Source of the DNA: an uncultured Bacilli bacterium
GTDB taxonomy: Bacteria; Bacillota_I; Bacilli_A; RF39; UBA660
Assembly: GCA_944350345.1 (NCBI GenBank)
Contig: CALVOP010000004.1
Location: 12,190-76,189 of the forward strand
DNA length: 64,000 nucleotides
Reading direction: 5' to 3'
Position numbers: made by a program. How positions within the stretch are numbered: the stretch's first letter is position 1; each line of letters starts with the position of its first letter. Of this stretch, positions 62,001 to 64,000 are shown in pieces.

Positions 62001-64000
62001 CACTTATTTCTATATTAATCACGTATGGATCAAGTAATTTGTATGTGATAAATGAAATTAATGCAACTGATAATATTGTGAATATTGTTATTAATATTAT
62101 TTTAATATTTTTTTTCATAACTGCCTCTATATAATAAGTATAACATATGTGTATTTTTTTAGCGAGAAATTAAATTTTTTTAGCAAAAATTCTTAGGGTA
62201 CCAAAACAGTTGAACTGCAACATAACCTCGATATTTTGTATTAGTATAGCAAAAATTCTTAGGGTACCAAAACCTATACTCAAATATATATACAGCAAGC
62301 ACGGTATTAGTATAGCAAAAATTCTTAGGGTACCAAAACAGTTGAACTGCAACATAACCTCGATATTTTGTATTAGTATAGCAAAAATTCTTAGGGTACC
62401 AAAACCTATACTCAAATATATATACAGCAAGCACGGTATTAGTATAGCAAAAATTCTTAGGGTACCAAAACTGTGCAAACATTAGGTCTATCATTGTTCC
62501 TGTATTAGTATAGCAAAAATTCTTAGGGTACCAAAACAGAAATAATGAAAGATATTCCTGACAAGTCGTATTAGTATAGCAAAAATTCTTAGGGTACCAA
62601 AACAATTAAAATAGGAGAGTGATTTTATGGCTTGTATTAGTATAGCAAAAATTCTTAGGGTACCAAAACTATATGGCAACTGACGACCAATTAACATCAG
62701 TATTAGTATAGCAAAAATTCTTAGGGTACCAAAACGATTTAATATTGCGTGTTGCTAAATAATCAGTATTAGTATAGCAAAAATTCTTAGGGTACCAAAA
62801 CGCTTTAGTGGTAATAACTTCTCCGTTTCCGGTATTAGTATAGCAAAAATTCTTAGGGTACCAAAACACAACCTATATATCAACCAATGTACCAAGTGTA
62901 TTAGTATAGCAAAAATTCTTAGGGTACCAAAACAAGGAACTATCTTCTTCGGTTTTAGAGTGAGTATTAGTATAGCAAAAATTCTTAGGGTACCAAAACG
63001 ATTTGGGTTTTACTGATATGAAGATAACTGTATTAGTATAGCAAAAATTCTTAGGGTACCAAAACGAGAAAATTAAAGATAACATCTACTCATTTGTATT
63101 AGTATAGCAAAAATTCTTAGGGTACCAAAACGTAGTTTTCCGGCACTTCTCCAAGTGTCTTGTATTAGTATAGCAAAAATTCTTAGGGTACCAAAACATA
63201 CTTCTTTGAGTAGTACAACAGCAATCTGTATTAGTATAGCAAAAATTCTTAGGGTACCAAAACAATGTTATTGTGTTAAAGGATAACTCATTCGTATTAG
63301 TATAGCAAAAATTCTTAGGGTACCAAAACAGTATCTTTTCCACTTATTCCCTTATCAGCGTATTAGTATAGCAAAAATTCTTAGGGTACCAAAACCTCAA
63401 ATTAATTATATCAATTATTTATTAATTTGTGTATATTTTTATATTTATTTTACAAAACGTTAAATAATTCAATAACTTTAGATGTTTTATTGTTTTTTAA
63501 ATATTCAATAAATATTTCATTGATTTCATTTGGTTCTAAATGAAATGGTAATTCTTCAAATATAAATGTGTTTATATTTTCTTCATCTGCTAAGTCTAAA
63601 ATTTTATTGTTTATTAAAATATAATCAGCCAGTTTTATGTTGTCATTATATAAATTTTGCAAAATTATAAACTTTATATTCGCTTCATTAATATTTAAAA
63701 TTTTATTAAACAAATTTTTAGTTAAATGTGTATCAATTATTATAATATGTGTTTTATCATTATCTTTGGCAATTTCATATATCATATTTAATTGGTATTC
63801 TATCAATTCTTCATAGGTTAAATCAAAATAATTCTTTTCTAAATCATTTTCTATTAACTTAGGTTTTATTAATTTTATAAATTGTTTTATTTCTAAATCA
63901 CCAGTTTGAAAGTTTAAGTTTGATAAACTTAATTGCATATTAGTATTATTTGAAAGATATTCCATGTCGAATATTTTTAATAATTCTTTTATTGTATTAT

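Follow-up and report, generated by a model that had tools for sequence, protein, structure and literature searches.

The array end of a very probably complete type II-A CRISPR-Cas locus in an uncultured Bacilli bacterium

We analyzed a 64,000-nucleotide (nt) stretch of DNA (the window) from contig CALVOP010000004.1 of an uncultured, low-GC Bacilli bacterium (window GC content, 28%), at one end of which a CRISPR array adjoins the 3' part of a csn2 gene. Our data make it very likely that this is the array end of a complete and recently active type II-A locus of the Streptococcus thermophilus CRISPR1/Staphylococcus aureus Cas9 subgroup. Its minus-strand order, as read in contigs identical to the window edge, is cas9, trans-activating CRISPR RNA (tracrRNA), cas1, cas2, csn2, a 54-nt leader, and the array. 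Judged from sequence, every type II-A hallmark that can be tested in this way (i.e., cas9, cas1, cas2, csn2, tracrRNA, a GTTT repeat, and the leader motif) is present. The anatomy of the locus, the identities of its genes, the complementarity of the tracrRNA, and a polarized turnover of spacers between strains are shown by these sequences. The features concerned are as follows, L001 being one of the related contigs from other samples or strains:

62172..63395, minus strand: CRISPR array of 19 repeats of 36 nt and 18 spacers of 30 nt, 16 of them unique (exact parse; repeat finder; Tandem Repeats Finder, TRF)
62172..62207, minus strand: degenerate trailer-end (terminal) repeat, GTTTTGGTACCCTAAGAATTTTTGCTAAAAAAATTT (exact parse)
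62208..62471, minus strand: tandem duplication of two repeat-spacer units, 132 nt twice, 62208-62339 and 62340-62471 (identical spacer pairs)
63396..63449, minus strand: AT-rich leader, 54 nt (promoter scan; leader-end comparison)
63450..64000, minus strand: 3' part of csn2, codons 113-294 plus a TAA stop at 63450-63452 (translation; PADLOC; fold match)
L001 ~7636-7727, outside the window, cas-gene strand: predicted tracrRNA (duplex scan; cofold)

Exact parsing of the window revealed the 36-nt repeat in 19 copies at a strict 66-nt period, 18 of which are identical (consensus on the plus strand, GTATTAGTATAGCAAAAATTCTTAGGGTACCAAAAC; on the minus strand, i.e., that of the CRISPR RNA or crRNA, GTTTTGGTACCCTAAGAATTTTTGCTATACTAATAC), separated by 18 spacers that each measure exactly 30 nt. 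Consistently, a general repeat finder and TRF recovered the same array, and its geometry is beyond what chance could produce. The sequence-only reading of this DNA had counted the same repeats and spacers; that count stands, except that the unique spacers number 16, because a 132-nt unit of two repeat-spacer units has been duplicated. More specifically, the spacers at 62208-62237 and 62274-62303 recur exactly at 62340-62369 and 62406-62435, and the repeat finder recorded the same event as duplication family D1 (62174-62305 versus 62306-62437, 98%). The two duplicated spacers are ancestral trailer-end spacers, and both also lie at the trailer end of the arrays in contigs L003 and L005. These two spacers are single in other strains (L003 spacer 24, L005 spacer 1), and L003 carries a near-duplicate spacer pair of its own, 1 nt apart. 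The degenerate repeat differs from the consensus at five positions, all at its minus-strand 3' end, and an identical degenerate copy closes the arrays of contigs L001-L005; it is thus an old, fixed trailer repeat, and the sequence-only reading had likewise placed the trailer end there. That reading had also noted a resemblance to the S. thermophilus CRISPR1 repeat, and the comparison upholds it: the two repeats agree at 22/36 ungapped positions, above all 10,000 shuffles (mean 10.6, standard deviation 2.6, maximum 21), the reference repeat being given verbatim in PMC4524480. The exact repeat of this array did not occur in the searchable literature.

Next to the leader, a minus-strand frame is open from its stop codon to the window end (182 codons). 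We identified this open reading frame (ORF), by sequence profiles and a structural model, as the predicted C-terminal 182 residues of a 294-amino-acid (aa) Csn2, whose start would be expected near 64334, past the window end. In a search of 5.8 billion proteins, one 294-aa protein (P0002) was 100% identical over residues 113-294 to the whole window fragment; it had only eight close relatives, with no Pfam domain in any of them. The PADLOC Csn2 profile PDLC01599 matched this protein at E=7e-49 (residues 1-286 on profile positions 1-272 of 279) and the window fragment at E=7.5e-22 (profile positions 116-272 of 279). When 1.84 billion cluster representatives were scanned exhaustively with HMMER, 234 relatives (counted as clusters at 50% identity) emerged, nearly all 275-300 aa long. 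Likewise, a profile built from 82 family members matched Protein Data Bank (PDB) entry 3ZTH at E=7.8e-8, and 7 of those 82 members reached Pfam PF16813 (Cas_St_Csn2). The AlphaFold2 model made on the 82-relative alignment scored highly (predicted local distance difference test, 94.9; predicted template modeling score, 0.88), and its best Foldseek match was 3ZTH, the long Csn2 Stu0660 of S. thermophilus (E=1e-12; template modeling score, 0.70), followed by all other solved Csn2 structures (3TOC, 3V7F, 6QXF, 3QHQ, 3S5U, and 9HP8). Remoter matches to ABC, RecF, and GajA ATPases are in line with the Csn2 fold, to which the model appears to conform, with an ABC-ATPase-like alpha/beta core devoid of catalytic motifs and a helical insertion. 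Csn2 proteins form a homotetrameric ring, bind double-stranded DNA ends, and associate with Cas1-Cas2. As the PADLOC models, the family profile, and the predicted structure agree, the earlier assignment of this ORF to csn2 holds, and the protein belongs to a ~290-aa subfamily nearest the long CRISPR1-type Stu0660 and is not of the S. pyogenes kind, which has 220 aa.

The rest of the cas operon was read from related contigs. Nine contigs from metagenomes or metagenome-assembled genomes (MAGs) encode exactly this Csn2, and the 605 nt of csn2 and leader in the window are 100% identical to all nine, with a trailer-side flank that is 92-99% identical. Wherever the contigs reached upstream, the order was bipA, cas9, cas1, cas2, csn2, array, and the gene for a 451-aa protein that comes next to the array in the window as well. 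Accordingly, the prediction that cas9-cas1-cas2 lie beyond coordinate 64000 was borne out in every edge-identical contig extending that far. The contig Cas9 has 1046 aa with HNH_4, Cas9_RuvC, WED, and PI domains and matched the PADLOC Cas9 profile at E=1.6e-145; Cas1 (297 aa) matched Cas1_II at E=4.7e-102, and Cas2 (106 aa) matched Cas2_II at E=2e-40. This Cas9 aligned end to end with S. aureus SaCas9 (5AXW/5CZZ, E=2e-201), St1Cas9 of S. thermophilus being the next match. The domain that interacts with the protospacer-adjacent motif (PAM) aligned weakly with that of SaCas9 (E=7e-13 over 147 residues), and the contig Cas9 differed from SaCas9 in the part of the alignment around the PAM-contact loop of the latter. 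We therefore rejected inference of the PAM from the SaCas9 alignment, and NNGRRT cannot be assumed, because the PAM-interacting domain is too divergent.

To locate the tracrRNA, a duplex scan of L001 was run with the repeat, and it returned a single site outside the array, in the 105-nt gap between cas9 and cas1 and on the cas-gene strand. The predicted tracrRNA has the sequence AGUAUAGCAAAAGUUCUUAGGAACUAUCAAAAUAAGGCUUUAUGCCGAAAUCAAGACUCAUUGUGAGUCUUUUUU, and its anti-repeat is AGTATAGCAAAAGTTCTTAGGAACTATCAAAAT. Cofolding of the crRNA-strand repeat, written as a guide component GUUUUGGUACCCUAAGAAUUUUUGCUAUACU, with this anti-repeat gave 9 bp, a bulge, and 21 bp (-50 kcal/mol). A promoter-like TTGCAA-17-TATGAT site with an upstream TG precedes the anti-repeat, a GGC-TTTAT-GCC hairpin (in RNA, GGC-UUUAU-GCC) lies downstream of it, and an 8-bp terminator hairpin with a T-run, of a kind found 0 times in shuffles, comes next. 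L008 keeps the element, as do L009 and L010, two contigs with a Csn2 of 71% identity; the sole anti-repeat difference in L009 and L010 converts a G-U pair with the repeat into a G-C pair. Placement between cas9 and cas1 has been described for three type II-A subclusters (Chylinski et al. 2013, PMC3737331). In the window itself, Rfam returned tRNAs only, with no tracrRNA family match, and the exact parse found no anti-repeat or other-strand repeat copy elsewhere in the 64 kb. This agrees with the sequence-only reading, which had seen no anti-repeat there; the predicted tracrRNA sits outside the window.

The leader that the sequence-only reading had placed at 63396-63449 was likewise confirmed. 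On the minus strand it ends in ...TGATATAATTAATTTGAG, followed by the GTTTTGG of repeat 1, so that a leader-anchoring motif, ATTTGAG (63402 down to 63396), abuts the first repeat. Type II-A loci of group 1 have ATTTGAG/GTTT as their leader-end motif; this motif is tied to the CRISPR1 type of S. thermophilus and to the long-Csn2 branch, and experiments in S. thermophilus showed that it directs the integration of spacers (PMC5382924). The promoter scan also detected a promoter-like TACACA-17-TATAAT site with an upstream TG, running from 63433 down to 63405 within the leader and ending 9 nt ahead of repeat 1. We compared leaders and repeats across 75 related csn2 loci with 12 distinct repeat types, which were found by a locus search with an 11-sequence alignment. 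The short leader and its TTTGAG end were kept in 12/12 repeat types, a TATAAT-like -10 box with TG a few nt upstream was kept in ~9/12, and csn2 held an invariant slot between cas2 and the leader. The array is thus predicted to be transcribed on the minus strand, from its 63395 end towards 62172, because the succession of csn2, leader, and array, the ATTTGAG junction, the distal location of the degenerate repeat, and the polarity of the spacers agree, as the sequence-only reading had supposed. The leader motif, the placement of the terminal repeat, spacer polarity, and tracrRNA complementarity ruled out transcription of the array from the plus strand.

Spacer content differs between strains in a polarized manner. 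The same repeat occurs with different spacer sets in contigs L001-L005 and L008-L010, and in arrays from other samples neither the repeat nor the degenerate terminal repeat changes, whereas the number of spacers ranges between 1 and 24. Two spacers, both at the trailer end, are all that the window has in common with L003 and L005; every leader-proximal spacer of the window is private. Where strains have identical cas genes, their leader-proximal spacers are entirely different. As trailer-end spacers are common and leader-end spacers differ between strains, acquisition has been polarized and recent, at the csn2 end. Among the related arrays, spacers at L003 2178-2207 and L010 10977-11006 are directed to the same target with a 2-nt offset and are independently held, in two lineages whose Csn2 proteins are 71% identical; moreover, L003 spacers 14 and 15 (2904-2933 and 2970-2999) are variants of one protospacer with 4 mismatches. 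Such common and variant targets suggest repeated encounters with related, diverging phages. We detected no self-targets in the window or the related loci (blastn-short, 70 spacers; longest match 20 nt, mismatched).

If this locus works like established type II-A systems, its transcription, processing by RNase III, interference, and use of Csn2 would follow the usual course. An extended -10 promoter in the leader would start the precursor crRNA a few nt before repeat 1, and each repeat would pair with the tracrRNA anti-repeat through 9 bp, a bulge, and 21 bp. RNase III, together with Cas9, would then process these duplexes into mature crRNAs, and the Cas9:crRNA:tracrRNA complex would cleave spacer-matching DNA beside a PAM. 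For adaptation, Cas1-Cas2 with Csn2 and Cas9 may insert new 30-nt spacers at the leader-repeat junction, with the ATTTGAG leader-anchoring sequence guiding the insertion site.

Several observations weigh against a complete and recently active type II-A locus. The sequences of cas9, cas1, cas2, and the tracrRNA come from contigs of other samples or strains and not from the window's own continuation, and Rfam found no match to a tracrRNA family in the L001 cas region. Pfam (PF09711, PF16813) and NCBIfam gave no match to either the 182-aa fragment or the full-length protein, which makes the "weak similarity" to csn2 reported by the sequence-only reading a fair description; a PDB sequence search with the 182-aa fragment likewise returned no Csn2 match. 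The spacer comparison that the sequence-only reading had suggested came back empty: no protospacer was found for any spacer, with chance-level matches only (E ~4) among INPHARED phages and PLSDB plasmids, and a 36-nt match to Clostridioides plasmids (E=0.03) falls mostly in a repeat. Exact 24-mers of window spacers 1, 2, 3, 4, and 9 had no match in IMG/VR, nor did a 28-mer of the target common to two other strains have an exact one. The absence of targets is unsurprising, as the host is uncultured and its phages are not in databases.

Some of these points would fit an array that is a decaying relic, its cas genes missing or inactive in this strain and conferring no immunity. Besides part of csn2, the window has nothing of the locus but the array, no target could be detected for any spacer, and the duplication of the two trailer spacers indicates recombination, not acquisition. 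However, only one of the 19 repeats departs from the consensus, contigs that match the csn2 fragment and leader at 100% identity have cas9, cas1, cas2, and csn2 intact and at full length, and the leader-proximal spacers are wholly different among strains with between 1 and 24 spacers, which points to recent acquisition; given also that missing targets are expected for this host, we consider such decay very unlikely. It is more improbable still, to the point of being scarcely credible, that the fourth gene is an unrelated accessory and the locus a type II-C-like cas9-cas1-cas2 set with a passenger. The silence of Pfam and NCBIfam, the public label "hypothetical protein" (e.g., GenBank MDD3422303.1, as for other family members), and a length of 294 aa, which agrees with neither of the textbook sizes of Csn2 (220 and 350 aa), would speak for a passenger. 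In contrast, the end-to-end PADLOC Csn2 match, the family-profile match to Stu0660, a fold that matches every solved Csn2, the invariant cas2-leader position in the 75 related loci, and the group 1 type II-A leader motif all speak for Csn2. Type II-C itself, a minimal cas9-cas1-cas2 set without csn2 or cas4, was rejected, csn2 being present.

Another alternative accepts type II-A and concerns the origin of the crRNAs, which might derive wholly or partly from promoters embedded in the repeats, as in type II-C Neisseria and Campylobacter, their 5' ends being to that extent independent of RNase III. Each repeat carries, on the crRNA strand, the site TTGGTA-16 nt-TGCTATACT (-10 box TATACT with a preceding TG). 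Since this box ends 5 nt ahead of the spacer, transcripts would start 2-4 nt into the spacer. The site was flagged in 18/18 full repeats (window 62243-63392, minus strand) with 9/12 matches and the extended -10 TG, and a "TGCTA" core at this position was kept in 9/12 distinct repeats of the related csn2 loci. Yet it is one sequence copied 18 times and hence a single chance event in a genome of 28% GC; once the repeat copies were collapsed, promoter-like sites in the region were no commoner than in shuffles. In addition, the -10 hexamer is not conserved among the 12 related repeats (TATACA, TACCTA, TAGAAC, and TGTGTA lack the final T), the -35-like TTGGTA is part of the conserved repeat start GTTTTGGTAC, and the conserved leader promoter and canonical tracrRNA duplex already account for crRNA production. 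The repeat-borne site is probably fortuitous, and we regard crRNA production from it as unlikely; if true, it would mean a type II-A system with partly RNase III-independent, per-repeat crRNA biogenesis. Thus, we retain a type II-A locus that is complete, recently active, and transcribed from its leader as the best account.

Among known systems, S. thermophilus CRISPR1 (St1Cas9, Stu0660) has the same cas9-cas1-cas2-csn2-leader-array order, likewise with 36-nt repeats, 30-nt spacers, a GTTTTnGTAC repeat start, and the same leader end, ATTTGAG followed by GTTT. By sequence profile and by structure alike, the Csn2 described here matches its Stu0660 best; it nevertheless has 294 aa versus 350 aa, ~15% identity, and a place outside Pfam PF16813. 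The present Cas9 is also shorter (1046 aa versus 1121 aa for St1Cas9) and nearer to SaCas9, the repeat ends in AATAC where AAAC or CAAC is usual, and the host is an uncultured Bacilli MAG, unlike S. thermophilus. S. aureus SaCas9 (5AXW/5CZZ) is of the same compact size (1053 aa versus 1046 aa). The SaCas9 guide scaffold has the same tracrRNA layout (anti-repeat, AAGGC-loop-GCCG hairpin, and terminator hairpin), and the SaCas9 repeat agrees with ours at 20/36 positions. In S. pyogenes, the opposite strand upstream of cas9 encodes the tracrRNA. The S. pyogenes system (SpyCas9; Csn2 3TOC, 6QXF) shares the common logic of cas9, cas1, cas2, csn2, tracrRNA, 36-nt repeats, and 30-nt spacers, as well as the Csn2 core fold (Foldseek E ~1e-6), whereas SpyCas9 has 1368 aa and is distantly similar to the Cas9 here (E=1e-17), its Csn2 has 220 aa versus 294 aa, and its leader motif is of group 2, CTRCGAG (PMC5382924). 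The locus thus stands between S. thermophilus CRISPR1, to which its Csn2, leader motif, and repeat are closest, and S. aureus, to which its Cas9 and tracrRNA layout are closest.

Elsewhere in the window, a predicted surface-protein cluster occupies 51722-55426 and 58988-62118 on the minus strand. It encodes a 730-aa protein with SH3_3, cadherin-like, and dockerin type I domains, a 498-aa protein with a cadherin-like domain, a 568-aa protein matching the repeat regions of MSCRAMM Sdr/Clf adhesins (with a 36-nt tandem repeat at 60041-60130), and a 451-aa protein with Big_2 and HL_N-beta domains. The surface-protein flank is 92-94% identical among several strains in which the cas-side sequence is 97-100% identical. 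Between the two parts of this cluster, a SipW-type signal peptidase I (55520-56152, minus strand; TIGR02228, E=2e-29) is preceded by a run of ~190-200-aa genes (55520-58883, minus strand). Three of these genes, at 56879-58883, are tandem paralogues with 77-84% DNA identity and weak camelysin/TasA-like and Ig-like matches, and their lengths vary between strains; the segment 55520-58883 looks like a TasA/SipW-type fiber operon by its gene content. A tRNA gene cluster at 10342-11909 comprises ten genes on the minus strand (Phe, Asp, Met, Ser, Leu, Lys, Gln, Tyr, Thr, and Val) and two on the plus strand (Arg and Pro), and an isolated tRNA lies at 1440-1513.

As a textbook type II-A locus, this one has little import beyond annotation. 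Its compact, SaCas9-sized Cas9 (1046 aa) has a divergent PAM-interacting domain, and both its tracrRNA and its repeat are defined; a defined Cas9, tracrRNA, and repeat are the minimum for testing as a genome-editing tool, possibly with a new PAM. The Csn2 belongs to a ~290-aa family of 234 clusters (50% identity) whose window member goes undetected by Pfam and NCBIfam. Because pipelines based on these databases would miss csn2 genes of this family, type II-A loci in uncultured Bacilli are liable to be mistyped as II-C. Finally, the strain-to-strain differences in spacers provide a marker for strain tracking and for linking phages to hosts in the gut metagenomes from which this bacterium derives.

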